A stretch of DNA of 64,000 nucleotides from an uncultured Alphaproteobacteria bacterium. Lineage in GTDB: Bacteria; Pseudomonadota; Alphaproteobacteria; RF32; CAG-239. The stretch covers positions 26,441 through 90,440 of the forward strand of contig CALXTS010000001.1 in NCBI GenBank assembly GCA_944391465.1, in the 5' to 3' direction. Under the pieces are notes generated by a model. It saw only the letters and a list, made by a program, of their open reading frames with translations, did not search any database and had not been told where the DNA came from. The position numbers and the translations under genes are program-made. Shown here piece by piece: positions 8,172 to 58,891 of the stretch (the first letter of the stretch is position 1; each line of letters begins with the position of its first letter).

Positions 8172-9527
8172 ATGTCTAATCCATATGCTCGTATTTTTTA
8201 CAATGATTTTAAAGAACGTTTTTTGAAACCGGAAAATAAGTCCGATGATTTTGTCGTACCTGCTAAATTTCAGCGTTTTTTAGATAATATGAATAAGATT
8301 TTTCAAAAATCAGAAGATGACAAACAATTTAATATTAATCCTAAAGGGTATAAAATAGAGGCTAAGGATTTTGCTGATTTTGTGCTTAGCTTAGGAGCAA
8401 CAATGTTTGCAAGCGCCGGAAAGATTCCGAATTTAAATGAAAAAGACAGTCGCTCTCCAGAAATAATAGAGTTTTTTGAAAGTGTGAAGAATTTTTGCAT
8501 TCAGAATTCTACCAAGTTAAGCGAAGATTTTGATTATGAATTTTTTAAATTAAATTCTTCAACGGGAAAACTTGAATTGATGGAAGATTTGCCGAATGTT
8601 CAGAAAAAAGGAATTTTTTTCTTTGGCGTAAATCGTAGTAGTTTTAATAATATGGATGATGTGAATTGTTTTTTTAAGAAAGCAACCAAAGATATTTTTG
8701 ATAATGAGGCTTTTTTGGGTTCGGATATTTATTCTGTGGCTTTGCCAAAGTGCTTTCCTGAAGAAATTGCAATGTCAACTATTCTTAAAACAATTGAAAA
8801 TTCTGAATATATTAACAGTTATGACCGATTTTTTGTTGAGGAATATTGGAGCTCGTATATCGGTAAAGATTTGGAATTTGATGAAAATGGCTTGGTTATT
8901 GGCGGAAAGCCTTATTCTCAGGAAGTTTTGCAAGAAAATTTAAAAAATTTAAAAGTTTTTGGTTATTGTGCTGGGGCGGCTAATGCTCATAGATGTCTTA
9001 AGGCTCTTAAAAATATTGCGGGACAATTGTATGATGAAAAGTTTTTGGCAAAGGCTTGGAAAAATATTAAAGTTGTTAGCTATGCATTTCCTCTTGAGCA
9101 AGAAAAAATTGATTATAACTGCGTTTCCGTTATGAGTAATGACAAAAATCCCGATAATCCAGAAACTGTTATTTTAACGCTTTTTCCGAGCCAGTATCAT
9201 AAATTGTGCATTAAAGATGAAAATGCTGTTAAAATTACTGATGAAGAAAACTGTAAGTATGTTGCTTTAGAATTACCTAAGGAAATTTCAAAGATTGATA
9301 CGCAAGGCAGGCGCTTTTCTTGTGCGATTGATAACAGGAATGGTCATCGTTTGCAAAATGCAACAGCTAAAAATGATACTTCACATAACTTTGAGGCGGT
9401 TTGCTATATTTTAAAATGTTGCATGAATAATGAGCCCGTAAATAATGGAAAATTATGTAGAATTGCTCAGAATTTGTCTGCTGCGGATTTATGCAGTTAT
9501 AAATTGGGAAATCAGAAGTCATCGTAA
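8172..9527 (+). CDS. Hypothetical protein, 451 aa, with no recognisable domain. The C-terminus is Cys/His-rich.
   Basis: A long clean ORF in the same orientation as flanking genes. There is no signal peptide. Confidence 0.55.
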   Translation: MSNPYARIFYNDFKERFLKPENKSDDFVVPAKFQRFLDNMNKIFQKSEDDKQFNINPKGYKIEAKDFADFVLSLGATMFASAGKIPNLNEKDSRSPEIIEFFESVKNFCIQNSTKLSEDFDYEFFKLNSSTGKLELMEDLPNVQKKGIFFFGVNRSSFNNMDDVNCFFKKATKDIFDNEAFLGSDIYSVALPKCFPEEIAMSTILKTIENSEYINSYDRFFVEEYWSSYIGKDLEFDENGLVIGGKPYSQEVLQENLKNLKVFGYCAGAANAHRCLKALKNIAGQLYDEKFLAKAWKNIKVVSYAFPLEQEKIDYNCVSVMSNDKNPDNPETVILTLFPSQYHKLCIKDENAVKITDEENCKYVALELPKEISKIDTQGRRFSCAIDNRNGHRLQNATAKNDTSHNFEAVCYILKCCMNNEPVNNGKLCRIAQNLSAADLCSYKLGNQKSS

Positions 9528-10173: not shown

Positions 10174-10210
10174 AAAAAAGGTGTTCATTTGAACACCTTT
10201 TTGTTTTTTT
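10174..10210. terminator. Bidirectional rho-independent terminator between convergent genes.
   Basis: aaggtgttc / attt / gaacacctt flanked by an A-run and a T-run. Confidence 0.75.
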
Positions 10211-11528
10211 ACTTTTCATTGCTTTGTTTTTTGAGTTTCATTAAATCTTTGAGATTATTAATGTGTTTCTTTTGTAAGTGTTTGGGCGCATGATTAAATT
10301 TACTGAAAGTAGATAATTTGCCATGATTCTTTTTCAAAGCCATTTGTTTGGCACCTTCACCTTTATTACCAACGGCTTTAATATCTTTTATCAGCTTTTG
10401 TTGTGCGGCCTCACTTAGTTTTTCAGAACTGTTTAAGGCTTTGCTCAGTGAAGAGGAAAGACCGTATTCTTTATATATTACATAACTGTACGCCATTTTT
10501 TCTTTGCTAATATCTTGGGGAAGGCTGAAGATGCCTTTGGCTATTTGTTGCTCAATTTGCTGATAGAGTTTTTCTTTTTTTGTTTTTGAACTCAGAATTT
10601 CTATCGTATTGTCATAATAACGGTTCCAGATACTTTGTTTGGAAATTTCTTGTTCAGATGTTTTTGAGCTCGAAAGATTGCTGACTTTTTGCCAGTGAAC
10701 TTCAGGAGCATATGTCTGAACAGTGTCTTGTTTTTGTTCTGAAATATTTTCTTGATGGTTGCTTGTGGTGTTTTCAGAAGAACAACCCGATTTTATACCA
10801 AACACACTTCCCAAAAGCGTTAATGTTGTTAAAGCGGCTATTTTAACTTTGTTTCCAAATCGAAAACGATTTGATTGTGTTTTTGATGGTTGAGGTTGGT
10901 TTTGTATAGATGTGTTTTCTTTAATTAAGGTGCGAATTTTTTGTTTTGCCTCTTCTTCAGTTTCTTCTGCCGGATGACAGATAACGCTGATATAATTCAT
11001 TGTTGCTTGATAGTCTTCCGGTTTTAAAATAATTTTATCTTTAACTATAGCGTCGGCATAGGCAGAAGCCTCGTTTTTTAATCTTTTAATTTCTTTTTTG
11101 CGTGATTGTCTGAAAAACATCGTCAGCCATATCTTTTTATGTAAAGAACGGTATCTTTCTGATTTTTTACGGAGTTTGTTTGAGGATAAATATTTTACGT
11201 CTTTTGATTTTGGATTAATTTTTTCCCAAAAAGTTTTGTTTGCTTCTTCCAGGTATTGTTTTATATCAAAATCGGCTTTTTTTTGCAGACGGTTTAAAAG
11301 TTCATCTTTTTGAAAATTTCCGAATATATTAACATAATCTGCCCATATTTTAATATCTTCTGCGGAAATCAGAATTTTATTTTTGGCAAGTTTATCAAGC
11401 AACTCATCTGCTCGATTATTAATTTCTTCCATTTTTGCGTATGTTTTAATTGAGAAACTTTTACTTCTAAGTTTTTTATATTTAGAAATATCCTGACGTA
11501 ATGATTTTATTAATTTTGTTTTATCCAT
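10209..11528 (-). CDS. Hypothetical Lys-rich protein, 439 aa, with a single central TM segment and an anti-sigma-like bitopic topology.
   Basis: A long ORF with a central hydrophobic stretch (KIAALTTLTLLGSVFGI). No catalytic motif was recognised. Confidence 0.5.
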   Translation of the reverse strand: MDKTKLIKSLRQDISKYKKLRSKSFSIKTYAKMEEINNRADELLDKLAKNKILISAEDIKIWADYVNIFGNFQKDELLNRLQKKADFDIKQYLEEANKTFWEKINPKSKDVKYLSSNKLRKKSERYRSLHKKIWLTMFFRQSRKKEIKRLKNEASAYADAIVKDKIILKPEDYQATMNYISVICHPAEETEEEAKQKIRTLIKENTSIQNQPQPSKTQSNRFRFGNKVKIAALTTLTLLGSVFGIKSGCSSENTTSNHQENISEQKQDTVQTYAPEVHWQKVSNLSSSKTSEQEISKQSIWNRYYDNTIEILSSKTKKEKLYQQIEQQIAKGIFSLPQDISKEKMAYSYVIYKEYGLSSSLSKALNSSEKLSEAAQQKLIKDIKAVGNKGEGAKQMALKKNHGKLSTFSKFNHAPKHLQKKHINNLKDLMKLKKQSNEK

Positions 11529-11944: not shown

Positions 11945-13381
11945 TCATGCTTGTTCCGCTCCATATCCATAGGCTCGCCAGATAATGCCCCATTCGCCTT
12001 CTTCTGTTGAAACGCTGCGAGTGCGAAAGCCCGTTGTTGTTTGTAGAAATGTATTACCATAGTAGTCTAGTTGGTTTGTGTAACATCTTAATGTTGTTTG
12101 AATGTGGTAATTGGTATCTCGGTAAGGTTGTAGCAAATTTACCGGAAATTTACTTAATGAATTGTCTGTCCAAAAAGCATAACCACCTTGTTCAAGCCAA
12201 CCACTTTTATATCTGCGGTACCAGCTCTCTCCTTCGCTCCAACTTTCAACAACAAAATCTATTCCGGGCATGACGTTGCTCAAGTCTGTTTTTACGGCTT
12301 CTCCAACTTTTTGGTCTATCAAATTTTGAATGCTGGCAAATTGAGCTTCACTGACATTTTCAAATTTGTTGGCAATGACAATATAAAAATATAAACCATT
12401 GTTTTCTTTATTGCCAAAATATGGAAGTCTTACACTTTTGTTTTCTTCATCTACTACATAAAAACGACAGTAACTATTGCCACTTTCATCAGTGTTGGCT
12501 AAAAGTTCTGCGGTGTATTCTTCTTGCGTTTTGGCGTATTGAGCATATTCTTCATTATTAATTGATAAGGCCCTTAGCCGTAACATTTCTGTCCAGAAAT
12601 CAGGATAGCCGCTATCACATCCACTTATTAAATATCCTTCAGCGTAATTTGGATCATTTAACGGAAGTAGGCCTGCGTATGATGCCGGATGATCAAAACT
12701 AATTATACTGCCAATATGTAAAAAACGACTTTCTCTAGAGGCTTGTTGAGCCAGTTGAGCTTCTTCTTTAGCTTTTTCAAATGCATTTTGAGATTCCGTT
12801 GCCGAGGTTTGCGCTGATGTTGCGCTTGCTTGGGCATTTTGAGCTGCATTGAGTGTTTCACTGTGGTATGTGGTCATCAAATCATTAAATTCATCAATTT
12901 GAATTTTTGAATTGGTTAATCCGGTTCCATCATTATTCCAGATAATGGCTTTATTTGGAGAAGGTTGCGGAAATTCTTTTTTAAGTCCGGAATTATTTGA
13001 ATAGACCGGAAGCAAAAAAGAGCGATTAAGTGCTTCGGCAATTTGTTGGGTGCAAGCTATTTGATAATTAAATTCATAATTGAGTGCTTTACTTCTTATT
13101 TCTCCGCCTTCTTGAAAGTCACTGACGCGTTTGATGCTTAGTTCTCTGACAATTGAAATGACGGTATCTTTAGCCGGAGGAGTTCCAAATATAACACTGC
13201 CTCCGGTTTCTGATGTTGAAAACTCAATGCTGAATCCTTCATTGGTTTTTATATTGTCAATATAAACGCAAATATTACCGCTTTCAAAGATTAAAAACGG
13301 AAAGACAAACGTGGTTTGAAGACCATCTGCGATATAGTTGATGTGCGGAATGGTCTCATCAATTGTAATATTTTTTTCCAT
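11945..13381 (-). CDS. Phage T7 gp17-like tail fibre protein (N-terminal tail-attachment domain plus a coiled-coil shaft).
   Basis: The N-terminus (YIADGLQTTFVFPFLIF...VISIVRELSIKRVSDFQEGGEIRSKALNYEFNYQIACTQQIAEAL) aligns by eye with the T7 gp17 N-terminal domain (YQLDGSNRDFNIPFEYL...[37 protein letters not shown]). It is followed by a Q/A/S-rich heptad region, as in gp17. Confidence 0.65.
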   Translation of the reverse strand: MEKNITIDETIPHINYIADGLQTTFVFPFLIFESGNICVYIDNIKTNEGFSIEFSTSETGGSVIFGTPPAKDTVISIVRELSIKRVSDFQEGGEIRSKALNYEFNYQIACTQQIAEALNRSFLLPVYSNNSGLKKEFPQPSPNKAIIWNNDGTGLTNSKIQIDEFNDLMTTYHSETLNAAQNAQASATSAQTSATESQNAFEKAKEEAQLAQQASRESRFLHIGSIISFDHPASYAGLLPLNDPNYAEGYLISGCDSGYPDFWTEMLRLRALSINNEEYAQYAKTQEEYTAELLANTDESGNSYCRFYVVDEENKSVRLPYFGNKENNGLYFYIVIANKFENVSEAQFASIQNLIDQKVGEAVKTDLSNVMPGIDFVVESWSEGESWYRRYKSGWLEQGGYAFWTDNSLSKFPVNLLQPYRDTNYHIQTTLRCYTNQLDYYGNTFLQTTTGFRTRSVSTEEGEWGIIWRAYGYGAEQA

Positions 13382-13511: not shown

Positions 13512-14600
13512 CTATTTTTGCTTTTTCTCTTTGGTTAAAGCCGTCTTTACGGCTCGTCTTGCCGAAAGGATAGCCGCCTCAATGGAACATGGGAAATCTT
13601 TCATTGTCCAGTCTCCGGCAATAAACATATTTCCATATTTTGTTTGTGCGTTTTCAGGGCGGAGAATATTGTTATATACATCTTGTGCGATGGTTGCGTT
13701 TTGGTGAATAATAACTTTATGTGGAGGTAAAAAAGCTGAATTTACTCCACGAAGGATATCTAGTTGTTTCCAAAGTCTTTCGGGGAGGGCTTTTATTTCT
13801 TCAACTGTCATGCGAGCATCAGAAATTGTGAATGAAACAATATCTTCATTAATAAATACCCAATCGGCTAATCCGTTTATTATTCCCATATAGCCGGCTA
13901 ATTTAGGTAAATTTATTTCTTGTGACGTGCGAAAATGAACGTTGATTATGCTGTTAAAAGTAAAATCGCGACTTTGAAATATTTTTGAATAAGCAGCTGC
14001 GTCTAAAGCAACAATAACAATATCATTTTTATCTAACTCCAATATTCCTTTATTGAAGTGTAAGGTTGCTATTTTTCCAAATTCTACACCTACACTTTCT
14101 AAGCGATGTCCGTATTTTATTTCATCTGCGTAGATAAGCATTGGATTAATTAATCTTTGTGTTAAATCATTTTTTGAAAAATAGACGCCGAGTTGGTGTT
14201 TGCTCCACGGAAAAAGTTTCCAGCAGATATTTTTTATCATTTTGCGGGGAATATCTTCGGCTTGAGTGTTGCACATTGATTTGAGTATTTGTCGATGGTA
14301 TTTGAAAATTTTGCTGGTAATGGTGTCTTTTTCTGCATCCCAAAAGTAGGTTTGGGACGGCCAGCGATGAACTCCGGTCAGAGCTGAAGCCATTCTGTTT
14401 CCTCGCAAAATTACATGTGTCGCATTATCTAAGCGGCACCCCATTTCTTTGTCATCATATGAATAACAGCGTCCTCCGGGACGATTGTTTGCTTCATAGA
14501 TAATAATTTTGCTTTGCGGGCGTTGTTTTCTTAGAAAACGTGAACACATCAATCCGGCAATTCCGGCTCCTATAATATGATATGTCGGTTGGTTTGGCAT
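13512..14600 (-). CDS. hpnE: Squalene-associated FAD-dependent desaturase (hydroxysqualene dehydroxylase) HpnE.
   Basis: An N-terminal dinucleotide-binding motif (HIIGAGIAGLMCS) and amine-oxidase-like architecture. It is the third gene after two squalene/phytoene-synthase paralogues. Confidence 0.7.
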   Translation of the reverse strand: MPNQPTYHIIGAGIAGLMCSRFLRKQRPQSKIIIYEANNRPGGRCYSYDDKEMGCRLDNATHVILRGNRMASALTGVHRWPSQTYFWDAEKDTITSKIFKYHRQILKSMCNTQAEDIPRKMIKNICWKLFPWSKHQLGVYFSKNDLTQRLINPMLIYADEIKYGHRLESVGVEFGKIATLHFNKGILELDKNDIVIVALDAAAYSKIFQSRDFTFNSIINVHFRTSQEINLPKLAGYMGIINGLADWVFINEDIVSFTISDARMTVEEIKALPERLWKQLDILRGVNSAFLPPHKVIIHQNATIAQDVYNNILRPENAQTKYGNMFIAGDWTMKDFPCSIEAAILSARRAVKTALTKEKKQK

Positions 14601-14602
14601 TA

Positions 14603-15436
14603 TTATTTTTCCATATAGGCTTTGAGTGTCAAACAGAGTTTTAAAAATTTACTGACTTTTGGTTTGGGCGATATTATCTCCCATCCACGATTTTGCATGA
14701 TATCAAAATATCTTTTATAAACATATGCAATAGCTTTTACCGGACGGGCTATTTTTTTATCAAGTTTCTTTATTTGTCTGAAAGCCTCTTGATAATATTC
14801 ATCGGCAAGTTGAGCAAGATCCTCTCGAGCAATAGCTAAGTTTTTATCGACAACAACAGTCATCGGGTCCCTGGATATTATTCCCGCTTTTCGCAAGCAT
14901 TCTTCAGGGATGTAGAGCCGTTGCGCCATGGCGTCTTCTTTTACGTCACGTAAAATATTGGTAATTTGCAAAGCTGTTCCCAGCGAGGTGGACAAGTTTT
15001 CGATTTGTTTTTCGTCTTTGCATCCAAAAATTCTTAAAGATAAATTTCCGGGAACGCCGGCAACTCCTCGGCAATAACGTTTAAAATCTTCCATTGACGG
15101 GGCTTGAATAGGAAAGGGGAGATCCATGGCTATACTATCTATCATACGGATAAACTCTTCTTTGGGAAGACCAAATCTCATACAGTTTTTGTAAATGCGA
15201 CGGCCAATATCCGTGCTGGGCTGTTTTTTATCAAAAATATTGTCCATCTCTTCTCGCCAGTCGTTGATTATTTCCAGTTTTTCTTCAACACTGTCATTGC
15301 CGTCAACAATGTCATCTAAATGCCGAAACAAGGCGTATATGGTAAACATGGCATTGCGACGGGCGCGAGGCAAGAAACGCATGCTCCAAAAAAAAGATGT
15401 TCCTGATTTTTTTACCATGTTTTTGATGTTATTCAT
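14603..15436 (-). CDS. hpnD: Squalene/phytoene synthase family protein, probably presqualene diphosphate synthase HpnD. The start is taken at the internal MNNIKNM, which avoids overlap with the upstream gene.
   Basis: Trans-isoprenyl diphosphate synthase head-to-head motifs (YALFRHLDDIVDG; ...NILRDVKEDA). It is the second gene of the operon. Confidence 0.7.
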   Translation of the reverse strand: MNNIKNMVKKSGTSFFWSMRFLPRARRNAMFTIYALFRHLDDIVDGNDSVEEKLEIINDWREEMDNIFDKKQPSTDIGRRIYKNCMRFGLPKEEFIRMIDSIAMDLPFPIQAPSMEDFKRYCRGVAGVPGNLSLRIFGCKDEKQIENLSTSLGTALQITNILRDVKEDAMAQRLYIPEECLRKAGIISRDPMTVVVDKNLAIAREDLAQLADEYYQEAFRQIKKLDKKIARPVKAIAYVYKRYFDIMQNRGWEIISPKPKVSKFLKLCLTLKAYMEK

Positions 15437-16299
15437 TTTATTGTTCCGACAGTTCTTTTTCTGGTAAATAACCCTCTCATTCCTCCGATTATGGATGATT
15501 TTATCCAATCAGTACGGGATAGTTTAATTTCTTGTGAGAGAATATCATTCTTTTGTAGTTTTTTTATCATACAATTAGTTAAAGAAAGTATAATTCCGAG
15601 TTCTATTTTCAAACGTTTGTTTTTTACAATTGAGGGAAGAAGCTCGGCATCTTTGAGCATGGATTGTTGGCGGGCGAGAATTTCATTTTTGAGTTCTGTA
15701 AGCCCTGGTGTACTGTATGTCAGGTACAAATCACTATCTTGGACATCATAATGTTTACACATATCTTCAGGTAGATATATGCGTCGTAGCATCATCGCGT
15801 CATATTTTATATCTTGGATGTGGTTGACGATTTGTAGGACGGTACATAGTGTTGCGGCCGGAAGATAGGTTGATGGATTTTCATTGTGAATGGCCAACAT
15901 AAAACGTCCGACCGGTACTGCTGAATAGTTGCAATAATCTATGAGTTCATCCCAAATCCGAGGTCTGATATTCTCAGCATCTCGACGGAAGGCTTTTAAT
16001 AAATCCGTATAAAGTGAGGCGTCTAAATTTTCAGATTTAAATAACTGTCCGAGGGCACTGGCTTCGGTACTTGCTTTATTTTTTTGGGGATTTAAAAATG
16101 CTGTTTCATATTGGTTTAGAAGGTGTAATTTTTCGTCCGGACTTAATTCATTATTATCCGCAATATCATCGGCACTGCGCGCTGCTTTGTAATATGCCAT
16201 GACTAAAGGGCGCAGTTTTTTATTTATAAATTTACCGACGGTAAAATTTTCATCAGGTGCATTTTTTTTGCGTATTTTGTTCATATTGCCTCCAGCCAT
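15433..16299 (-). CDS. hpnC: Squalene/phytoene synthase family protein, probably hydroxysqualene synthase HpnC.
   Basis: ENFTVG near the N-terminus, [14 protein letters not shown] and [12 protein letters not shown] motifs. It is the first gene of the hpn operon. Confidence 0.7.
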
Positions 16300-17775: not shown

Positions 17776-18972
17776 ATGATGAATAAAAAGTTTTGTTTAT
17801 ATATATCAGGAGCATTGTGCTTTGCTTTTTTCTCTTCAATGGCTTTTGCCAGTGAAGACAGCGTGCCGTATATGTATGGCGGTGCGGTTAATTATGAGCA
17901 ACTTGAAATGGTAAATGCTCAGATGAGCAAAACTAAACCGGAATTTGAACAAGGCGATATTTTTGGTGCGGATACGTTTGATATCGGTGATGAAACACCT
18001 GTTTTGCCTCCTGAAAATAAACAAGAAGATATAACATCCGGTACGGAGTTGCCTTCACCAAATGCGACTCCTGAAGTTCCTATGCTTCAAGCTGATTCAG
18101 ATTCTCAAAAAGAACAGAAACTGCCGGAAAAAGAACTTAATCAGGAAAGTTTGAGTGAGAATTTTTCTGATACGGATGTTGCAGAAGAAAATGCTTTTGC
18201 CGGAGAGGAAGATTTCCTTTTATCCGAAGAAACAGCTGATGCCGGAAACAAGCAAACCTGGATTGATAAGATTTCAAGTGAGAAAGCTCTTTCTAAGTTT
18301 AAGGATTTATCATCAGGAGAAGATAGTTTGGAGGATTTGGTTGATAAGGCGCGTTCCGGAACTAATAAACGTTCAAATGCTTCGGTTTTTGATATTTCCG
18401 GTTTGATGTTACGTATGACTCTCAAGCAAGTTGATGGTATTATGCAAAACAGAGGGTTTAAAAAGGTTATGGAACGTCTTGAAATCCCTAATTTTATAAA
18501 ATGGAGAAATGAAGAAAAATGCCGAAACAGCGGTGTTGTCGGTTATGAAAGGTTGGAGGCCTGTGTGATACAAAAAGCTAAAGAAGACAAACATCAATAT
18601 GTGCAACATACAAAGTATGCCAAATATGATACAAAAGAAGAGATTGAGGTTTTCTTTACCAGTAATTTTACGGATAATAAGGCTTATAAAATTATGTATC
18701 AGAGTATGGCTTCGGCTCTTACCGGAAACAGTCCTAAGGCTATGTATCTTTACAATATAAAAGTTTATGATTTTTGGAGGCGAATTAATCGTAAATATGG
18801 GGTTCCCGATAATAAACAGATGGTTACATGGGGCTTGGGTAACGGAAAAGCCTATCTTAAAGCAAAAACCGGAGAATTGGTTTTGGAAGATCCTATGTTT
18901 AGGGAGCTTGATTATACGAGAATGTCACGCGAAGATCAGCGATATTTGGCAACGGATTTGTATAGTTTTTAA
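17776..18972 (+). CDS. Hypothetical secreted protein with an acidic low-complexity N-terminal region. The start is the internal MMNKKF, where the signal peptide begins.
   Basis: Signal peptide MMNKKFCLYISGALCFAFFSSMAFA, followed by a D/E/S-rich stretch. Confidence 0.55.
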   Translation: MMNKKFCLYISGALCFAFFSSMAFASEDSVPYMYGGAVNYEQLEMVNAQMSKTKPEFEQGDIFGADTFDIGDETPVLPPENKQEDITSGTELPSPNATPEVPMLQADSDSQKEQKLPEKELNQESLSENFSDTDVAEENAFAGEEDFLLSEETADAGNKQTWIDKISSEKALSKFKDLSSGEDSLEDLVDKARSGTNKRSNASVFDISGLMLRMTLKQVDGIMQNRGFKKVMERLEIPNFIKWRNEEKCRNSGVVGYERLEACVIQKAKEDKHQYVQHTKYAKYDTKEEIEVFFTSNFTDNKAYKIMYQSMASALTGNSPKAMYLYNIKVYDFWRRINRKYGVPDNKQMVTWGLGNGKAYLKAKTGELVLEDPMFRELDYTRMSREDQRYLATDLYSF

Positions 18973-18992: not shown

Positions 18993-19607
18993 ATGAGTAA
19001 TGAATTGTCATCTGTTGAAATTGCCGAATTGATTTGTACCCGTATAAGTCATGATCTTGTCGGAAATGTCGGAGTTATTGCAAATGGTGTGGAATTGTTG
19101 GAAGAGGGTGATGTCGAGTTTTTAGATGATATTCGCTCTATTTTTAAAACGGGTTCCGGAGTTTTAGCGTCTCGTCTTAAATTTTTTCGGCTTGCTTTCG
19201 GACTAAATAACACTAATCTTGAAGATTTTGATTTTGTAAAGGAAATTGTAAATAACTATCTTCAGACACTTGGAAATAAAAATTATCCGATAATGCTTGA
19301 TTGGAAATTGGAAAATTCAACCTATACTAAAGCTGTTTTGGTTATGATTATGATTATGTCCGATATTTTTATTAGAGGTGGAAAAATTAACGTTGTTTCT
19401 GAAAATGGACGGGTTAGGGTATTTCCGATTTCTGATTATTCAATGTCAGATGAGAAAATAAAAACAGTAAAAAATATTTTAAATGGTGAAGAGACTGAAC
19501 CTTCGGCGCAATATGCTCCGGTTTATTTTTTAATTTCTTTATTAAGGAAACAAAAAATTAATCTTTATGTTATAAATTCCCCGAACTTGGAATTGGTAGT
19601 GGAGTAA
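18993..19607 (+). CDS. chpT: Histidine phosphotransferase ChpT. The ORF track starts at a TTG at 18975; an ATG at 18993 with an upstream AAAGAG is preferred.
   Basis: RISHDLVGNVGVIANGVELLEE ... SRLKFFRLAFG and MLDWKLE align well with the Caulobacter ChpT (RLCHDFISPASAIVSGLDLLED ... LLQFTRVAFG ... TLDWQIE). Confidence 0.8.
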   Translation: MSNELSSVEIAELICTRISHDLVGNVGVIANGVELLEEGDVEFLDDIRSIFKTGSGVLASRLKFFRLAFGLNNTNLEDFDFVKEIVNNYLQTLGNKNYPIMLDWKLENSTYTKAVLVMIMIMSDIFIRGGKINVVSENGRVRVFPISDYSMSDEKIKTVKNILNGEETEPSAQYAPVYFLISLLRKQKINLYVINSPNLELVVE

Positions 19608-19616
19608 AAAACTGAT

Positions 19617-19982
19617 ATGCCCAGATGTGTTATTGCTGATGACTCTAAAGTAATAAGGATGCTTTTAAGCCGAATTATGACGAATTTCGGTTTCGAGGTT
19701 TCTGAGGTTGAAGATGGTGAAGAATTATTGGAGAATTGCCTTACTACTCAGCCCGAATTGATTATCAGCGACTGGGAGTTGCCAGCAATGGATGGTATTG
19801 ATGTTTTGTATAAAATTCGTGGGTATTCTCGTTTAAAACAGCCGAAATTTGTTTTTTGTTCTTCTTTTAATGATATTTCAAAGGCTCAAGAAGCTGTTGA
19901 TGGTGGTGCGGATGATTATATCTTTCGCCCCTTTGATGAGGAAATTATTGCGACGAAATTAACTATTTTAGGGTTGTTGTAG
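19617..19982 (+). CDS. Single-domain response regulator (CheY/CpdR-like receiver).
   Basis: Acidic pocket DD (aa 8-9) and phospho-acceptor Asp in IISDWELP. An Arg replaces the conserved Lys in DYIFRPF. Confidence 0.8.
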   Translation: MPRCVIADDSKVIRMLLSRIMTNFGFEVSEVEDGEELLENCLTTQPELIISDWELPAMDGIDVLYKIRGYSRLKQPKFVFCSSFNDISKAQEAVDGGADDYIFRPFDEEIIATKLTILGLL

Positions 19983-19992
19983 GAGGGGAAAT

Positions 19993-20895
19993 ATGAGAAA
20001 AAGTGATTTTGAATTTTTGACCTCACTCCTGCGTCAGTATGCCGGTTGGGATTTTAATGAAGAACAGTATTTTGTTGTTGATAGAAAAATCTCTAATTTT
20101 ATTCGAGAAAAAAATTACCCCGATGTTGAAGATTTAATTGATGAACTTAAATTGGGTGCAAGAGCTTTGATTTCTCAAGTTGTTGAGAGTTTGGCGTTGT
20201 CTGATACTTCTTTTTATAGAGATTTTGACGTATTTCAGCGTTTTGAGACTATTTTGTTGCCAAATTTACGTGAAAACAACCGTTCCAGTAAAAAAATCCG
20301 TTTTTGGAGTTTGGGGTGTGCTACCGGTCAAGAAGCATATTCAATCGCGATGGCTGTAAAAAATACCGTTTTGGGGTTGGATGATTGGAATATTGAAATT
20401 TTGGGTAGTGATTTATCTGCGGAAGCTATCAATAAAGCTCAGAAAGGTATCTATAATAATTTTGAAGTTCAAACAGGTTTAAATGTGAAATCTATTCTGA
20501 AGTTTTTTCATCAGGAAGGTGCTAATTGGGTAATTAATGATGATATTAGAGGTATGGTAGATTTTCGTCGTTATAATCTTTTAGAGGATATTACTTTTTC
20601 AAATAAATTTGATGTTATCTTTTGTCGGAATGTTTTGCGTTTCTTTTCTCCGGAATATCAACAATTGCTTTTAGCAAAAATAAGTTCTTATCAGGCACAA
20701 GGCGGAATCCTCTATTTAGGGAAAAATGAGCATATTGAAGGTATTGAGGATTATTATAATAAATTACCCGGATTTAATTGTGTGTATGTTTCTAAGATTA
20801 CAACCGTACAGCAAGATATGTCTTTACAGAAGGTTTCTGGGAGTGAAACGGTAGAAGTTATGCCTAGTTTTGTCCGCCCTACAGGATTGTTGTAA
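19993..20895 (+). CDS. cheR: CheR-type chemotaxis protein methyltransferase.
   Basis: FFRDFDVFQ and the SAM-binding block IRFWSLGCATGQEAYSIAMAV, with overall CheR N- and C-domain organisation. Confidence 0.8.
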   Translation: MRKSDFEFLTSLLRQYAGWDFNEEQYFVVDRKISNFIREKNYPDVEDLIDELKLGARALISQVVESLALSDTSFYRDFDVFQRFETILLPNLRENNRSSKKIRFWSLGCATGQEAYSIAMAVKNTVLGLDDWNIEILGSDLSAEAINKAQKGIYNNFEVQTGLNVKSILKFFHQEGANWVINDDIRGMVDFRRYNLLEDITFSNKFDVIFCRNVLRFFSPEYQQLLLAKISSYQAQGGILYLGKNEHIEGIEDYYNKLPGFNCVYVSKITTVQQDMSLQKVSGSETVEVMPSFVRPTGLL

Positions 20896-21182: not shown

Positions 21183-22271
21183 ATGCAGAAGCATATACAT
21201 CTTATTTCAGTATTCATCCTTAGTCTTTTTTTATTTATCTGCAAAGCCCAAGCGGCAGTTTTGTTTCTTCCTCATGCAAATTACGGATATGCGGAAACTT
21301 GTCTTCGTTTAGGTATGACCGATACGATGCGCAGCGGTTATGTCTGCGAGCAAAAAAGCGTTATTGATGAAATGAACAAAGAAAAGATAACGGTATGTTA
21401 TAAGAACTGTCGTGCGCAAAGCTGTAAAATCATCAATTCAAGTTACAAAACAAGTTCCGAGAAAAGTTCATATGAGATGAAAGGTTATAACTGTACGGAG
21501 AGTTCTGAGAAAAGTATCAGCGGCTCATGTTACAAGTGTGATTGTGATAACGGAAACGTTAAGAACGGTTATTGTTTATGTAGCTCAGGATATAGTCGCA
21601 AACAAGTTGACGGGGCATGGAGTTGTGTTTGTGAGGCGGTTGACCATAAAGAACTGATAAATGGCGCGTGTCGGTGTTCATCTGGTTATGTTATGGACGA
21701 CAAGAACAACTGTATTTGTGACGGAAGCGTCAATAAAGAAATTAAAGCCGACGGAAGTTGCGGCTGTATAGCCGGCACGGCGGAACAATCGGACGGAAGT
21801 TGTAAGAAGGTTGAATGTTTATCGGGTTATTATTTAGATAATTCGACCTGTATGGCGTGTCCGGAAGGGAGTTACAGTGAGGCTGGTTCGATTGGTATAG
21901 ACAGTTGTGAATACTGTCCGGAAGGTTACACGTTAGGATTAGGCAATTGCGAAAAAGAAGAGCATCCGGAAGGATTTGAATACAGTAACGCGGTAGATTC
22001 CAACAATATGCCGATATATTTGGGAAATCGGATATGCGGGAAGTGTGAAGAAAAGAAATGTACGGAACCGTACGGAAAGATAGACAGTTGTTCCGATGAC
22101 ACGAAAGCGCTTTTTTATAACGGAGAATATGCAGGAAACACGGCGTGCGGAGCATGTATCCAAATCAAGTGTGCGGAAGGCAAGATAGATTATGAGGCGT
22201 GTTATGAGGAAAGCGGCATAAACTACGGTGCGATTTCTGCGTGGGTATCCATGGGCAGTTTGGTTGAATAG
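21183..22271 (+). CDS. Secreted cysteine-rich repeat protein with ephrin-receptor-like / GCC2-GCC3-type CxxCPxGxY modules. The start is MQKHIHL, which has a GAGGAG RBS.
   Basis: Signal peptide (LISVFILSLFLFICKAQA) and more than 50 Cys residues in repeated CxC...SGY and C..CPEGSYS / CEYCPEGYT modules. Confidence 0.65.
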   Translation: MQKHIHLISVFILSLFLFICKAQAAVLFLPHANYGYAETCLRLGMTDTMRSGYVCEQKSVIDEMNKEKITVCYKNCRAQSCKIINSSYKTSSEKSSYEMKGYNCTESSEKSISGSCYKCDCDNGNVKNGYCLCSSGYSRKQVDGAWSCVCEAVDHKELINGACRCSSGYVMDDKNNCICDGSVNKEIKADGSCGCIAGTAEQSDGSCKKVECLSGYYLDNSTCMACPEGSYSEAGSIGIDSCEYCPEGYTLGLGNCEKEEHPEGFEYSNAVDSNNMPIYLGNRICGKCEEKKCTEPYGKIDSCSDDTKALFYNGEYAGNTACGACIQIKCAEGKIDYEACYEESGINYGAISAWVSMGSLVE

Positions 22272-22292
22272 TAACAAGGACGGAGAAAGGCG

Positions 22293-23552
22293 ATGAAAGA
22301 TTACAGAAAGTATGCGTTATGGTATGGGGTTGGTTGTTTGATATTACCGCAAATAAGCTATGCGATGACTTGTGAAGAAGCTCCGGATTGTACGGCGCTC
22401 GGGTTTAAGGTTTCCGGCTCGGAGGTTAAGAGTAAGTGCAACGGATTGAGCCGAATGAAGTGTCCTTTCGGGGATTATTACTTCTGCTCCGAGAAAAAAT
22501 GCGAAGAAGATGATTATCCTTATACCAAAAGCAACTGCAGCTATACTCTTGCCGGAAGTACCTGTGAAGATGCACAAGGAACTCATTATAAGGAATGTAT
22601 TCAGTCTTGTGATACATCAAAATATCCTTATACGTCATCAAACTGTGAAGGTTCAGTTTCAGGAACGACGTGTAGAGACAGCAGCGGAACGCACTACAGT
22701 GCTTGTGTTTGTGGTTATACATATACCACCAGCAATTGCACTTCTCCTAAAGAACCAAGCGGAAAATCTTGTTATGACGGAACACAGTATAAACATGAAT
22801 ATTGTACATGTCCGAGCGATTATAAATATTATAGCTATACTTGTAGTGGTACCTTAGGCGGCGGTTCTTGTTGTAAAAGCGAAGATTATAGTGGGAAATG
22901 TATTAGTGAATCTTATAAATCTTGTGATTGCGGCGATGAATACAAATATACTATAGACAATTGTTCTGGTAATATCAGTGGCTCTATTTGTGTAAGTAGG
23001 TACGTTGATAACAGAATATCTAGTTATCCAGGAACCGATTATGCAACGGAGTGTTGCACAAGCGGATGTTGTATCGGATATTTTTACTATAGTGATGATA
23101 CTTGCGGAAAAGAAGAAACAAAATCAGGGACAAAAACTTTAGGAGTAGTGGTCGCTTCCGGAAAAGTATTAAATGTGGAAAAAAATGCAGTATCTCAAAT
23201 TAGTGCTATTGAAGATTTTACTTTGGCTTGCAGCATTTATAATGAAGGAGGAAAATCTTGGTATGCACCTTCCATCAGCGATTTACAATCAATCAGAATT
23301 GATATTTTGAATGCGGATGGAACTTATGATAATAATTTTAGAGAAACCGATTATTATATTTCTGCAACAGGAACTGCTTCTCAAATATACATGTATAAAG
23401 CAGCAAACACTTATACACACAAAGGTGGTGTATCTGCTACGAAAGGAATGGTGACGACAAAATCTTTACCTATAGAAGAAACTGGATATCAGCCAGATAT
23501 GAGTGATTATGTTGCAATACATGCATATGCCAGTTGTATGTTCAACTTTTGA
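22293..23552 (+). CDS. Secreted cysteine-rich protein with tandem ~35-aa YPYT-SNC...G-TC-D--GTHY--C modules and a non-Cys C-terminal domain of about 150 aa.
   Basis: Signal peptide (YALWYGVGCLILPQISYA). The module is repeated at least three times (DDYPYTKSNCSYTLAGSTCEDAQGTHYKEC; SKYPYTSSNCEGSVSGTTCRDSSGTHYSAC; YTYTTSNCTSPKEPSGKSCYDGTQYKHEYC). Confidence 0.65.
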   Translation: MKDYRKYALWYGVGCLILPQISYAMTCEEAPDCTALGFKVSGSEVKSKCNGLSRMKCPFGDYYFCSEKKCEEDDYPYTKSNCSYTLAGSTCEDAQGTHYKECIQSCDTSKYPYTSSNCEGSVSGTTCRDSSGTHYSACVCGYTYTTSNCTSPKEPSGKSCYDGTQYKHEYCTCPSDYKYYSYTCSGTLGGGSCCKSEDYSGKCISESYKSCDCGDEYKYTIDNCSGNISGSICVSRYVDNRISSYPGTDYATECCTSGCCIGYFYYSDDTCGKEETKSGTKTLGVVVASGKVLNVEKNAVSQISAIEDFTLACSIYNEGGKSWYAPSISDLQSIRIDILNADGTYDNNFRETDYYISATGTASQIYMYKAANTYTHKGGVSATKGMVTTKSLPIEETGYQPDMSDYVAIHAYASCMFNF

Positions 23553-47018: not shown

Positions 47019-48296
47019 ATGAAAGAAGAGGGGTTGCTCATGGCTAAAAAATTTGATTATGAACGTATTTGTAAAAAATTTTATAAGCTCAATGTTGGTG
47101 CTTTATTTGTGAAAATGGGTCCCGAAAAACTTAAAATTGTTTTTAATATCATAAAAAAAGTTAAAGATGATATTGATTATGTTATTTGGATTGCTCCTTC
47201 TCAGTATTTGGCTACTAAAATTTATATGGAAGATATTGCGTATGTTGCAGGGGAGGATATTGCCAGTAAAATTTGTTTCTTTTCCATGGAAAATATTTCA
47301 GTCAAAGATAATGAATATTTAAAACTTTATAATATAAGTGACCGAAATAAGGTTTTTTGTGTTGTCGATGAGAGTATTAATATCAAAAATACTAAAACCG
47401 GACGAACCAAACGTCTGATTGCCATGAAAAACAAGTTTGATTATCGTTTAATTTTGTCGGGAATGATGCTTACTCAAGGTTTGGCTGATTTATATTCTCA
47501 GGTGCAATTTTTGGATTCTGCTATTCTTAATATGACTAAAACTCAGTTTATGCATACGTTTATGCCTTATTATGAAGATGATTTTGAGGTGTCTAAACGT
47601 TGGTCAACTCCCCAAAATGAAGCAAGGTTGATTAAGATGATTCGTCCTTATATCTTGGCTTTTGATTTAAGAGATGATTTTAAAATTATTTATCACAGTA
47701 CTGATTTTCAATTAACTCCGAAGGAAAAAGAATCTTATCAACAGGAAAAAGATGCTTTTTTAAAAGGACGTGACAGAGTGGCTTTTTTACAAGTCGTTCA
47801 GCGTTTCCAATATTTTTATACTATTAGCAGTGATAAGGTTAAGGCTTTAATCAAACTTGTCGATGAAATTCAAAAACGTAATGAAAAAGTTATTATTTAT
47901 ACAAAATATTTGAGTGAAATTAAGTTTTTTAAAGAGGCTCAATTGCTGGGAAAAAACAAATATGTGATTATGTCCGGTAATACTAACAAACTTAACGCTT
48001 TAAAACGGTTTGAAAAAAATGTGGATATTATGTTGTGCACATATAAAGTTGAAGCGCCTCGTTTGAATCTTACCGGTTTTAATAATATTATCTATTTTAC
48101 TCAAACCTATGATTATAAAGATAAAATTCAAACTCTGAATAATTTTTATAATAATAATATCAAAGAAATAAACGTTTATGACTTTTGGGTGGATACAAAA
48201 TTAGAAGGCTTGATTAAAGATAATTTACTTCGCAAAAAAAATGTGCTAAATAATGTTTGTAGTGTTATGTCAAAAAATGAGGCCTTGGAACTATGA
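47019..48296 (+). CDS. SNF2/DEAD-like helicase-family protein with degenerate ATPase motifs. It has no canonical GxGKT, and motif VI lacks the arginines.
   Basis: Motif II DESINIKN (cf. DEAHRIKN), motif III RLILSGMMLTQGLADLYSQVQFL (cf. RLLLTGTPLQN.L.ELW.LL.FL), and helicase-C blocks (KVIIYTKYLSEIKFF; MLCTYKVEAPRLNLTGFNNIIYF). The Walker-A position reads MGPEKLK. Confidence 0.55.
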   Translation: MKEEGLLMAKKFDYERICKKFYKLNVGALFVKMGPEKLKIVFNIIKKVKDDIDYVIWIAPSQYLATKIYMEDIAYVAGEDIASKICFFSMENISVKDNEYLKLYNISDRNKVFCVVDESINIKNTKTGRTKRLIAMKNKFDYRLILSGMMLTQGLADLYSQVQFLDSAILNMTKTQFMHTFMPYYEDDFEVSKRWSTPQNEARLIKMIRPYILAFDLRDDFKIIYHSTDFQLTPKEKESYQQEKDAFLKGRDRVAFLQVVQRFQYFYTISSDKVKALIKLVDEIQKRNEKVIIYTKYLSEIKFFKEAQLLGKNKYVIMSGNTNKLNALKRFEKNVDIMLCTYKVEAPRLNLTGFNNIIYFTQTYDYKDKIQTLNNFYNNNIKEINVYDFWVDTKLEGLIKDNLLRKKNVLNNVCSVMSKNEALEL

Positions 48297-49594
48297 AGAT
48301 ATATAAAGATAAAAATGTTTATGACGCAACTATTGATAGAATTAAATTTGCGTTTGATAACTTTGATAATGTTTATGTATCTTTTTCCGGTGGTAAGGAC
48401 AGCGGCTTGTTGCTAAGTATGGTGCTTGATTATAAACGTCAGCACAATATTTCTAAAAAAATAGGGGTGTTTCATCAGGATTTTGAAGCTCAATATGAAT
48501 TGACAACCGAATATGTTACCAAAATGTTTGAGGAAAATATTGATGATATTGAACCTTATTGGGTTTGTTTGCCGATGGGGTCAAGGTGTGCGGTAAGCAA
48601 CTACCAGATGTATTGGTATCCGTGGGATGATGAAAAAGAAGAACTTTGGGTTCGTGAAATGCCTAAAATGCCTTATATCATCAATTTAAAAAACAATCCG
48701 TTTGATTTTTATAAATACAAAATGTCTCAAGAAGATTTGTATGCCGAGTTTGGGCAATGGTATGCCAGAACGCATAAGGGAAAAACAATTTGTCTTTTGG
48801 GTATTAGAGCTGATGAGTCTATTAATCGTTATCGCGCTTATGCTAATACTCGGAAAGTGTTAATGAAAAATTCTCAGTGGACGACCAAAATGGGAAAAAA
48901 TTTTTATAATGCTTATCCTATGTATGATTGGTCAACAAAAGATGTTTGGATTGCTAATGGAAAATTTGGCTATGAATATAACAAAATTTATGACTTGTAT
49001 TATAAAGCCGGTTTGTCTATTAATCAAATGAGAGTTTCAAGTCCATATCACGAAAACGCTAAGGAAAGTCTCAATTTGTACAGAGTCTTAGAACCTGCTA
49101 CTTGGGCTAAAGTCGTTTCTCGTGTTAATGGTGCTAATTTTGCGGCAATGTATGGAAAATCTAAGTTAATGGGGGTTGGAAAGATTACTTTGCCGGCAGG
49201 GCATACCTGGCGTTCTTATGTCAAATTCCTGTTGGCAACTTTACCCAATGATATTAGAGAAAATTATATTGCCAAATTTAAAACTTCCATCCGCTTTTGG
49301 TGGAAAAAAGGTGGCGTCGTTAGTGATCAAGCGTTGGAGGAGTTGGAGGCTTGCAATTATCGTATTCGACACAATGGTCGCAGTGGGTATAATAAAGAAA
49401 AAGACAGAATCTTATTCTTGGGGACTCCTGATAATACTGATGATATAAAATCGACTATTGATATTCCGTCTTGGAAGAGAATGGCCGTTTGTATTCTCAA
49501 AAATGACCATTTATGTAAGTATATGGGGTTTGCTCAGACTAAAAAACAAACTCAACGTGAAAAGGAATTAATTGAGAAATATAAAAGTTTGTGA
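48293..49594 (+). CDS. PAPS-reductase-like PP-loop ATP pyrophosphatase family protein with a DUF3440-like C-terminal region (IbrA/DndC-like).
   Basis: PP-loop VYVSFSGGKDSGLLLSMV, a length of about 430 aa, and a 4-nt overlap (ATGA) with the upstream SNF2-like gene. Confidence 0.65.
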   Translation: MKIYKDKNVYDATIDRIKFAFDNFDNVYVSFSGGKDSGLLLSMVLDYKRQHNISKKIGVFHQDFEAQYELTTEYVTKMFEENIDDIEPYWVCLPMGSRCAVSNYQMYWYPWDDEKEELWVREMPKMPYIINLKNNPFDFYKYKMSQEDLYAEFGQWYARTHKGKTICLLGIRADESINRYRAYANTRKVLMKNSQWTTKMGKNFYNAYPMYDWSTKDVWIANGKFGYEYNKIYDLYYKAGLSINQMRVSSPYHENAKESLNLYRVLEPATWAKVVSRVNGANFAAMYGKSKLMGVGKITLPAGHTWRSYVKFLLATLPNDIRENYIAKFKTSIRFWWKKGGVVSDQALEELEACNYRIRHNGRSGYNKEKDRILFLGTPDNTDDIKSTIDIPSWKRMAVCILKNDHLCKYMGFAQTKKQTQREKELIEKYKSL

Positions 49595-49603
49595 GGAATA
49601 ATA

Positions 49604-50119
49604 ATGGCTGATTTTGTTAGTCCGGTTTATAATGTCATGGCTGTACCTGTTGAGAAGGTTTTTGCTAATGACTATAATCCGAATAAAGTGGCACCACCGG
49701 AGATGAAATTGTTAGAGCTTTCCATTTGGGAAGATGGTTTTACTCAGCCGGTTGTGTGTTATTATGACAAAGAGGGGGATAAATATATTGTTGTTGATGG
49801 TTTCCATCGTTATACAATTATGAAAACCAGCGAACGGATTTATGCCAGAGAACACGGAAAACTTCCTATTGTGGTCATTGATAAGGATTTAGGTGAAAGA
49901 ATGGCCTCCACGATTCGACATAATCGCGCCAGAGGTAGTCATAATGTTGATTTGATGAGTAATATTGTGGCTGAGTTGGTTGAAATGGGAAAAAGTGATA
50001 GTTGGATTTGTAAGAATATCGGTATGTCTGCCGACGAGTTGTTACGAATGAAACAAGTAACCGGTTTGGCGGCTTTATTTAAAGACGATGAGTTTTCCTT
50101 GAGTTGGGAAACTAAATAA
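49604..50119 (+). CDS. ParB-like nuclease-domain (ParB/Srx, DGQHR-type) protein (IbrB/DndB-like).
   Basis: KYIVVDGFHRYTIMK (cf. DG.HR) and TIRHNRARGSHN blocks. It sits 9 nt downstream of the PP-loop gene. Confidence 0.6.
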   Translation: MADFVSPVYNVMAVPVEKVFANDYNPNKVAPPEMKLLELSIWEDGFTQPVVCYYDKEGDKYIVVDGFHRYTIMKTSERIYAREHGKLPIVVIDKDLGERMASTIRHNRARGSHNVDLMSNIVAELVEMGKSDSWICKNIGMSADELLRMKQVTGLAALFKDDEFSLSWETK

Positions 50120-57799: not shown

Positions 57800-57875
57800 G
57801 GGCGCTTAGCTCAGCTGGAAGAGCATCTCGTTTACACCGAGAGGGTCGGGAGTTCGAACCTCTCAGCGCCCACCA
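57800..57875 (+). tRNA. tRNA-Val (anticodon TAC).
   Basis: GGGCGCTTAGCTCAGCTGGAAGAGCATCTCGTTTACACCGAGAGGGTCGGGAGTTCGAACCTCTCAGCGCCCACCA, with the anticodon loop ttTACac. Confidence 0.88.
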
Positions 57876-58021: not shown

Positions 58022-58801
58022 TTACTTTCCTGTATGGAATTTTATTTTATTCTTTCCACCTATATTTAAAAGTGCTTTTTCTGTGTTTTCGGTTAATGCA
58101 ACCAAATTTTTTCCATATTTGGATGAACAAGCCCCAAGGCTTCCACTAATTTTCAGGGTTTCTTTTTTATTTATCTTAAATGATAGTTTTTCTATATTTT
58201 CTAAAAGACGCTTTGCTACTATCTTTGACCCTTTTTCATCGGAATTAGCTAAGAAAATTATAAATCTTTCCTCGTCTAAACGGGCAACCAAGTCACTGTT
58301 TCTTAAATCCTTTTCTAAAATGTTGCCGGATTGTTTTAGAACTTTGTTGACTGTTTTTGTGCCATATTGTTCTTTAATTTGAGATATTTCATTTATTTTT
58401 ATCATCATAATTGCAAAATTTTGCTTTTCTTGCAGTGCTTGATTAATTTTTTCAGATGCCGCTTCCGTAAAATATTTATAATTATATACGTTTGTGATGT
58501 CATCTCGACGAGCTTTTTCTATTTTATCTTCGGCATCATAATACAAAATCATCATGAGAATGATGAATGTGCAAAAAAATGTTATTAAGTTTGATATAAT
58601 CAAAATGTAAGATTCTATGTAAACGCCATATGCAAACCAACAAACAAGTCCAAGACTGTATATTGTGTACATGTAGCTCGACATGTTTGTAACGTTTTTG
58701 GTCTCAATTATGCGCAGAATTTGTATTGTAAAAGTCAGGATAGTTGCTAATCCGGCCGCATATCCGATATAGGTAAATAAAGTCTCTTCATCAAATAACA
58801 T
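58022..58801 (-). CDS. Fusion protein: an N-terminal PQ-loop (SemiSWEET-like, 3-TM) membrane domain plus a C-terminal degenerate GGDEF domain (A-site LDEER) with an intact RxxD I-site.
   Basis: The N-terminus (TFTIQILRIIETKNVTNMSSYMYTIYSLGLVCWFAYGVYI) fits the PQ-loop repeat. The GGDEF-domain blocks read DITNVYNYKYF, IKINEISQIKEQYG, and RNSDLVARLDEERFIIFL (cf. RxxD-LVAR-GGEEF). Confidence 0.6.
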   Translation of the reverse strand: MLFDEETLFTYIGYAAGLATILTFTIQILRIIETKNVTNMSSYMYTIYSLGLVCWFAYGVYIESYILIISNLITFFCTFIILMMILYYDAEDKIEKARRDDITNVYNYKYFTEAASEKINQALQEKQNFAIMMIKINEISQIKEQYGTKTVNKVLKQSGNILEKDLRNSDLVARLDEERFIIFLANSDEKGSKIVAKRLLENIEKLSFKINKKETLKISGSLGACSSKYGKNLVALTENTEKALLNIGGKNKIKFHTGK

Positions 58802-58891
58802 TTCAGCACTCCCGAATTTATTTTTTTTAGACTAGTCTATTACTCTTTAATTAAAAGTTAAATTTATTAGAATATCCTCAGGATACTTAAA

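Follow-up and report, generated by a model that had tools for sequence, protein, structure and literature searches.

What does a transporter-type membrane fold do when it is joined to a GGDEF domain that appears unable to make cyclic diguanylate (c-di-GMP)? The question is raised by a gene for a 259-residue protein, here called the fusion protein, in a 64-kb stretch of DNA from an uncultured alphaproteobacterium; this whole stretch is referred to as the window. An earlier note, made from the sequence alone, had placed here a PQ-loop or SemiSWEET-like membrane domain fused to a degenerate GGDEF domain, without naming the strand. The two-domain description is correct, far beyond chance, and the strand is the minus strand (Table 1). 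Pfam locates MtN3_slv (PF03083) at residues 12-91 (E 8.6e-8; score 32.6 bits, gathering cutoff 23.7) and GGDEF (PF00990) at residues 98-246 (E 3.4e-28). Searches of PDB sequences with phmmer paired the N-terminus with solved SemiSWEETs from Leptospira biflexa (4QNC, E 2.6e-12 and 4.7e-13 in two comparisons), Thermodesulfovibrio (4RNG) and E. coli (4X5M), and the C-terminus with many GGDEF domains. The answer put forward below, as a tentative first choice, is that the fusion protein would be a c-di-GMP receptor with the fused SemiSWEET-like module as its output. For every functional step beyond the statement that the protein is not a cyclase, we infer from sequence.

An AlphaFold2 model of the fusion protein, built on a 46-sequence family alignment, has a mean predicted local distance difference test (pLDDT) score of 84.8 and contains helices at residues 5-34, 40-62 and 65-98 followed by a GGDEF fold. 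Foldseek comparison of the model with GGDEF crystal structures, several of which have c-di-GMP bound, gave target TM-scores of 0.86-0.91 and root-mean-square deviations of 1.5-2.4 Å. With MtN3_slv above the Pfam threshold, solved SemiSWEETs matched and three helices modeled, the earlier assignment of a three-helix, SemiSWEET-type N-terminus (transmembrane helices TM1 to TM3) holds. The PQ-loop label survives as far as the SemiSWEET/MtN3 fold is concerned and fails in its details: the Pfam PQ-loop model scores 12.1 bits, under its cutoff of 22, and the PQ motif itself has no proline. NCBIfam SemiSWEET_2 also remains under its cutoff (60.6 bits, cutoff 80). The third modeled helix is unbroken and runs straight from the membrane into the GGDEF domain. 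Inspection of the sequence places a cluster of Lys/Arg in loop 1 (R30, K35) and after TM3, and acidic residues at the N-terminus, a distribution that fits an N-out, C-in topology.

Can this GGDEF domain still synthesize c-di-GMP? It was compared with PleD, whose numbering equals that of the fusion protein plus 192 with no insertions or deletions between D100/D292 and R198/R390; a HMMER alignment to 8WCN bears this register out for IKIN, RxxD and the motif. The metal-binding aspartate D327 of PleD presumably corresponds to K135, the guanine ligands N335 and D344 to K143 and N152, and the phosphate-binding lysine K442 to G248. We likewise take D, E and R to stand for PleD G368, G369 and E371, with D176-E-E-R-F180 lying over GGEEF (368-372). 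The earlier note was right that IKIN replaces the usual IDID and that the GGDEF motif is not intact, as the alignment to 8WCN and the family alignment both indicate; its "LDEER" was correctly called degenerate, but is one residue out of register and should read DEERF. A word-indexed search of 5.8 billion proteins returned 99 relatives at 42-99% identity, nearly all of about 260-320 residues and with the same two Pfam domains; the conservation counts given throughout rest on 95 full-length homologues. Across these the motif position reads [DENG][DEN][NED]xF, GG(D/E)EF occurs in none, and the metal, guanine and phosphate ligand positions are nowhere restored. With replacements at the metal, guanine, phosphate and GG positions alike, no c-di-GMP synthesis is expected of this domain; judged by its residues it cannot be a cyclase, and its anatomy is that of a receptor built around the inhibitory site (I-site) of GGDEF domains.

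NCBI nevertheless names the homologues "diguanylate cyclase", and the strong GGDEF Pfam match could be read in the same way, as an ordinary active cyclase with a membrane sensor domain. This is extremely unlikely, since GG has become DE, the equivalents of D327, N335, D344, E371 and K442 are replaced and no family member has an intact motif. The GGDEF fold is the one feature of an active cyclase that is present; the motif and the metal, guanine and phosphate ligands, which define the activity, are absent, and for that reason the annotation is very probably wrong.

The I-site, by contrast with the active site (A-site), is intact. R167-N-S-D170 is followed by LVARL and then by D176EERF, which puts RxxD exactly five residues upstream of the motif position, as had been claimed. 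All 95 homologues, whose identity spans 42-99%, carry R167, D170 and R198. We take these residues to be the equivalents of PleD R359, D362 and R390, the last also corresponding to PelD R402. In PleD, PelD, PopA and PssE this Arg-Asp-Arg triad binds an intercalated c-di-GMP dimer. The sequence-level features of the degenerate-GGDEF receptor class, namely an inactive A-site, RxxD at -5 and a third arginine, are all present in the fusion protein; with a degenerate A-site and a retained triad in every homologue, the suggestion that it is a receptor and not a cyclase is borne out at the level of residues.

The closest known parallels belong to this class. PssE (Lmo0531) of Listeria monocytogenes has a degenerate GGDEF motif (DKDDA) with RxxD five residues upstream and binds c-di-GMP with a dissociation constant (Kd) of 0.79 µM, two molecules per protein (PMC4125290). 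PelD of Pseudomonas aeruginosa, a GGDEF-type receptor with a Kd of 0.5-1.9 µM, and PopA of Caulobacter crescentus are likewise I-site receptors of c-di-GMP (PMC12564702). PssE and PelD resemble the fusion protein in layout, with a membrane segment at the N-terminus and GGDEF in the cytoplasm, and in having lost GG(D/E)EF but not the RxxD five residues before it. PopA is, moreover, an alphaproteobacterial effector with a degenerate A-site and a functional RxxD I-site (PMC12564702), but it is a soluble REC-REC-GGDEF protein with no membrane module, and its output is polar localization and delivery of CtrA to ClpXP.

Could the site serve some other ligand? PleD structures with ppGpp or pppGpp plus c-di-GMP have been deposited in the PDB (9G85, 9G86), the hairpin that replaces GG keeps an acidic/amide character ([DEN][DEN][NED]), and no cyclase was seen in the DNA sampled, roughly 0.6 Mb with high redundancy made up of the window and about 545 kb of flanks. 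A nucleotide other than c-di-GMP (a different cyclic dinucleotide, (p)ppGpp or GTP), bound at the I-site or in another place, or non-canonical catalysis, could account for these points. It is nonetheless very unlikely: the conserved triad is exactly that of the c-di-GMP I-site, and the equivalents of N335, D344, D327 and K442 are all lost. GTP in particular is unlikely to bind at the A-site because the guanine, metal and phosphate ligands have gone.

If the cytoplasmic half is a receptor, is the membrane half a transporter? The solved SemiSWEETs (4QNC, 4X5M/4X5N, 4RNG; phmmer E 1e-9 to 1e-13) share with the fusion protein three transmembrane helices, the PQ glutamine, a pocket of Thr, Trp and Asn and a conserved serine that starts TM2. 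The putative pocket threonine T20 (T15 in E. coli SemiSWEET, EcSemiSWEET) is conserved in 95/95, and W55 and N71 complete the pocket (Table 1). The differences are that TM3 extends into a cytoplasmic domain of 170 residues and that the hinge proline is replaced by Ile, Leu, Phe or Val. Position 26 is isoleucine in 78 homologues, leucine in nine, phenylalanine in seven and valine in one, and proline in none; the glutamine that follows, Q27, aligned to Ec Q22, is kept in all 95. Stand-alone relatives met in passing retain PQ (in loci L053 and L015). Judged by sequence, the module belongs among the divergent relatives of SemiSWEETs, with one defining feature, the hinge proline, missing.

That feature bears directly on transport. 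In EcSemiSWEET, TM1 kinks at the PQ proline and the motif acts as the hinge of a "binder-clip" transport motion; the substitution P21A brings uptake down to background (PMC4309421). TM1 of the fusion protein is an unbroken helix in the AlphaFold2 model. The transporter half of the earlier note's c-di-GMP-gated, sugar-transporter-like module is weakened by the family-wide loss of the proline, and a sensor-like membrane module becomes a live alternative.

Such a sensor would work from the outside in. A non-transporting module would bind a periplasmic sugar-like ligand, and TM3 and the stalk would relay its occupancy to the dead GGDEF domain, altering either its affinity for c-di-GMP (sequestration or release) or its interaction with a partner. 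We regard this, the chief alternative, as unlikely, while giving it serious weight: the hinge proline is lost in 95/95 and the pocket residues T20, W55 and N71 are kept, P21A kills transport by EcSemiSWEET (PMC4309421), and the linker between the domains is extremely conserved. Transporter folds placed as sensors ahead of GGDEF domains do exist. In Sd-Amt1 of Shewanella denitrificans (8QJ3/8QPF, the former matched here), an Amt-HAMP-GGDEF ammonium receptor, a transporter fold and a GGDEF domain serve signaling and not bulk transport (PMC11152129). The likeness has limits, for Sd-Amt1 signals outside-in through HAMP to an active cyclase, whereas the fusion protein has a dead GGDEF domain with the I-site only and a 14-residue helix link. 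The KDEL receptor, of SWEET-type fold, arose from a SWEET-type transporter, and a PQ motif was lost with the change to receptor; this is a structural analogy only, as it is eukaryotic, has seven transmembrane helices and a peptide ligand and lacks a nucleotide-binding domain. An outside-in sensor would, however, end in an output domain with neither enzymatic activity nor a known partner, no conserved neighboring gene is at hand to supply one, and loss of the proline is no proof of loss of transport.

How is conservation spread over the fusion protein? Mean pairwise identity is 68% in the membrane module (residues 9-86; 29 of 78 columns at least 95% conserved), 87% in the linker YYDxEDKIERxRRD (residues 87-100; 11/14 columns) and 39% in the GGDEF domain (residues 101-255; 14/155 columns), and seven of the 14 conserved GGDEF columns lie within or beside the I-site. 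On these alignments the pattern is the reverse of the one expected from an anchor joined to a receptor. A linker that is 87% identical and a continuous helix at residues 65-98 suggest, from sequence and model respectively, that the domains are tightly coupled.

These figures bear on a further alternative modeled on PelD and PssE, in which the helices would only anchor and dimerize the protein and c-di-GMP would switch on a second machine not linked to it, for instance a polysaccharide synthase. Both of those proteins are anchored in the membrane as degenerate-GGDEF I-site receptors and exert their effect on partners, and some loci of the family carry sugar-nucleotide and glycosyltransferase genes at a distance of a few kb: UDP-glucose dehydrogenase, RgpF and PIG-L in L007, and DegT and UDP-glucose dehydrogenase in L015. 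Even so, we consider this arrangement quite unlikely. The membrane module is far more conserved than the GGDEF domain (68% vs 39%) and T20, W55 and N71 are kept, which would be unexpected for a simple anchor and argues that the module is more than one. The membrane parts of PssE and PelD are not SemiSWEET-like, whereas that of the fusion protein is a highly conserved transporter-type fold. Finally, pelD and pssE lie in exopolysaccharide operons and their products act on separate synthases, unlike the fusion gene, which has no conserved neighbors and is never found in a conserved operon.

The reading we tentatively prefer, a c-di-GMP receptor acting on its own membrane module, can be set out as follows. 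The protein would form a homodimer in the inner membrane, as in SemiSWEETs, each chain contributing a three-helix bundle with its N-terminus outside and its C-terminus inside. SemiSWEETs are obligate dimers (PMC4309421), which would place two GGDEF domains directly under a six-helix bundle. Binding of c-di-GMP at the I-site of both membrane-proximal GGDEF domains would shift their mutual arrangement, and rigid TM3-stalk helices would relay the rearrangement to the membrane module, so that the state of the Thr20/Trp55/Asn71 pocket (open, closed or occupied) would follow the cellular level of c-di-GMP. The continuous TM3 of the model agrees with the TM3 of EcSemiSWEET, which reaches out into the cytoplasm (PMC4309421), as well as with the movement of TM3 in the course of the SemiSWEET transport cycle. 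In this scheme c-di-GMP binding, dimerization, the direction of signaling and any transport are steps that we infer. A precedent for the general design is provided by BcsA, the cellulose synthase, whose membrane translocation module is governed by a c-di-GMP-binding domain fused to it on the cytoplasmic side (PMC12564702); that domain is PilZ and not GGDEF, and the channel belongs to a glycosyltransferase and not to a SemiSWEET.

A number of observations weigh against this proposal. The position we take to be equivalent to PleD R313, which cross-links GGDEF domains in PleD, is Q/E in the fusion family, so the cross-linking geometry of the PleD I-site is not transferable. The AlphaFold2 model is a monomer whose transmembrane part has pLDDT values of 58-81. 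Canonical alternating-access transport by a module without the PQ proline seems doubtful on sequence grounds, given its absence from 95/95 homologues and the effect of P21A in EcSemiSWEET. The signaling context is also sparse: a family-derived hidden Markov model run on all open reading frames (ORFs) of the window and the homologous loci found no other GGDEF gene, either within the 64-kb window or across some 545 kb of flanking DNA that is redundant in part, a search we consider sensitive enough because it detected a canonical GGDEF of Clostridiales. For the 40 ORFs at window positions 43-49594, Pfam identified no c-di-GMP gene, EAL and PilZ included; the scan left out six ORFs between 49.6 kb and the window end, and for five of these, all but 49604-50119, there are only the precomputed Pfam labels of a syntenic, near-identical locus (L002). 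Nor did the loci examined contain a conserved neighbor that would point to a substrate or a pathway.

How widely is the fusion distributed? An exhaustive HMMER profile search of 1.84 billion representatives at 50% identity recovered only two full-length proteins with the SemiSWEET part (P0053 and P0155) and a few fragments before scores fell from 307 to 148 bits or less, and the lower matches are GGDEF-only, often with tandem GGDEF domains. The SemiSWEET-GGDEF fusion is therefore confined to one narrow, isolated clade. No such fusion with an intact GGDEF was found among the 1.84 billion representatives, and an "active ancestor" form was not seen. Restarting the search from the distant member P0097 returned the same family and a few new close members and no outside relative; a search with the N-terminal 95 residues returned truncated or frameshifted family members only and no stand-alone relatives; and a contig scan with the single fusion protein brought up nothing but a Clostridiales GGDEF of 28% identity, which is unrelated. 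The handful of homologues with a name are labeled "MAG: Alphaproteobacteria bacterium", and homologous loci encode GcrA and a CcrM-type methyltransferase. The carriers are uncultured and their sample names are those of human-gut and ruminant (rumen) metagenomes. One cluster at 90% identity comprises 203 member sequences, and 38 loci of the family were recovered, most of them labeled as human-gut assemblies; the family is thus common in such metagenomes and the question concerns an uncultured but widespread gut lineage. The distribution, which had been proposed as a check, is accordingly that of a single gut and rumen alphaproteobacterial clade.

Neither half of the fusion protein is new. A fusion of the two was not found in the literature searched in full text, and the word GGDEF is absent from a 2017 survey of 3,249 SWEET and SemiSWEET proteins. 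What is new is a fused SemiSWEET-like module as the putative output of a probable I-site receptor, the two parts being known singly. That this is the first SWEET-family membrane module under direct second-messenger control is possible but on the doubtful side. It could take either of two forms: a c-di-GMP-gated solute pathway that may operate without the canonical proline hinge, or a KDEL-receptor-like sensor that may couple a periplasmic sugar-like ligand to cytoplasmic c-di-GMP binding. We know of no native role assigned to a bacterial SemiSWEET. Either form, if true, would provide a physiological handle on these proteins, whose transport is of low affinity (PMC4309421). If c-di-GMP does control the module, a transporter-type fold would join the direct outputs of c-di-GMP, the hinge-proline model of the PQ-loop superfamily would become testable on a natural proline-less variant, and the role of bacterial SemiSWEETs could be tested in a defined signaling context.

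Table 1. Features of the fusion gene and its immediate flanks in window coordinates (Ec, E. coli SemiSWEET; Lb, Leptospira biflexa SemiSWEET; aa, amino acid residues).
Feature	Position	Strand	Basis
Fusion gene, 259-aa SemiSWEET-like / degenerate-GGDEF protein, stop codon included	58022..58801	minus	ORF list, Pfam
Shine-Dalgarno GGGAG, 7 nt 5' of ATG	58809..58813	minus	read from sequence
SemiSWEET-type three-helix membrane module, aa 9-86	58544..58777	minus	Pfam, NCBIfam, phmmer, AlphaFold2
I26-Q27, PQ-motif position, hinge Pro replaced	58721..58726	minus	aligned to LPQ/IPQ/APQ of solved SemiSWEETs
W55, pocket tryptophan (Lb W48 / Ec W50), 95/95	58637..58639	minus	alignments
N71, pocket asparagine (Lb N64 / Ec N66), 92/95	58589..58591	minus	alignments
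Linker/stalk YYDAEDKIEKARRD, aa 87-100, predicted cytoplasmic continuation of TM3 into GGDEF	58502..58543	minus	conservation, model
Degenerate GGDEF domain, aa 101-255	58037..58501	minus	Pfam, Foldseek
IKIN, aa 134-137, at the (I/V)D(I/V)D position, Lys for metal-binding Asp	58391..58402	minus	8WCN and family alignments
I-site RNSD (RxxD), aa 167-170	58292..58303	minus	R and D invariant 95/95
DEERF, aa 176-180, at GG(D/E)EF position, degenerate A-site	58262..58276	minus	alignment to 8WCN "arlggeef"
R198, third I-site arginine	58208..58210	minus	invariant 95/95
Terminator-like hairpin GCTCTGAATTCAATTCAGGGC then TTTTT, directly 3' of stop codon	57989..58014	minus	read from sequence

The gene itself is unremarkable in its signals. 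It begins at an ATG (58799-58801) and lies between a tRNA-Val gene (57800-57875) and a divergently transcribed ORF with no Pfam match; it is probably monocistronic. A scan for promoters and terminators around it gave nothing remarkable, and the hairpin of Table 1 was missed by the consensus terminator scan because its stem contains one mismatch. A protein identical to the fusion product (P0101) is present in public assemblies. A conserved operon was considered and rejected, as gene calls in six lineages revealed different neighbors in every lineage examined, BLAST identified no homology among the small unannotated neighbors of family genes, synteny with the window is already lost at 68% protein identity, and Pfam found no conserved family among the neighbors in human-gut loci.

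Several family members deserve separate mention. P0155, of 359 residues (8001-9080 of L015), is the most distant and has an extra Lys-rich C-terminal tail. Its contig, L015, also encodes at 3365-3655 a stand-alone 96-residue PQ-loop protein with LPQ intact, whose gene runs into the 3' end of a UDP-glucose dehydrogenase gene transcribed convergently with it. In two loci (L013, 3001-3797; L014, 2307-3103) a frameshift splits the fusion gene exactly within the conserved linker: the sequence reads …YYDAEDKIE and resumes as RERRDDITTVY in another frame, yielding a 137-residue SemiSWEET ORF and a 129-residue GGDEF ORF. The split form occurs in independent assemblies (three contigs for P0157; 13 contigs and 19 member sequences for P0303), so it is probably a real pseudogene or split gene and not an assembly error. 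On a human-gut contig (L043, 11162-19180, minus strand) a family member lies beside a 2672-residue ORF with no Pfam match. The best profile matches outside the family, P0162-P0199, are about 500 residues long and have two GGDEF domains in tandem; many contain a second domain that lacks the guanine-binding block IND(T)YGH (e.g., "KIDNL…LREQHG"), a loss similar to that in the fusion family, but retains RxxD. On the columns compared, which do not include those of GG(D/E)EF, the receptor domain may have its closest kin among these tandem proteins.

The window as a whole has a G+C content of 36.7% and includes housekeeping, chemotaxis and hopanoid genes. Rfam at the gathering threshold returned four tRNAs only for the window, and no c-di-GMP riboswitch. 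A minus-strand row at 13512-16299 consists of two genes of the squalene/phytoene-synthase family and a flavin amine-oxidase-like gene, an HpnC/HpnD/HpnE-like cluster for squalene, the hopanoid precursor, in a low-GC gut alphaproteobacterium. A 274-residue protein encoded at 5461-6285 (minus strand) has EF-hand calcium-binding matches (EF-hand_7, E 8.5e-15), which are uncommon in bacteria. Six ORFs of 362-478 residues (8172-9527, 10209-11528, 11945-13381, 17776-18972, 21183-22271 and 22293-23552) have no Pfam match at E ≤ 1e-6. One of them, 17776-18972, belongs to a same-strand run with an unmatched 204-residue ORF (18993-19607), CheY (19617-19982) and CheR (19993-20895), and the two ORFs at 21183-23552 lie downstream of this run after a gap of 287 bp. 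The plus-strand stretch 47019-49594 comprises a gene for a protein with an SNF2-related domain and, after it, a PAPS-reductase/DUF3440 gene, a pairing that resembles DNA-modification or defense-type loci.

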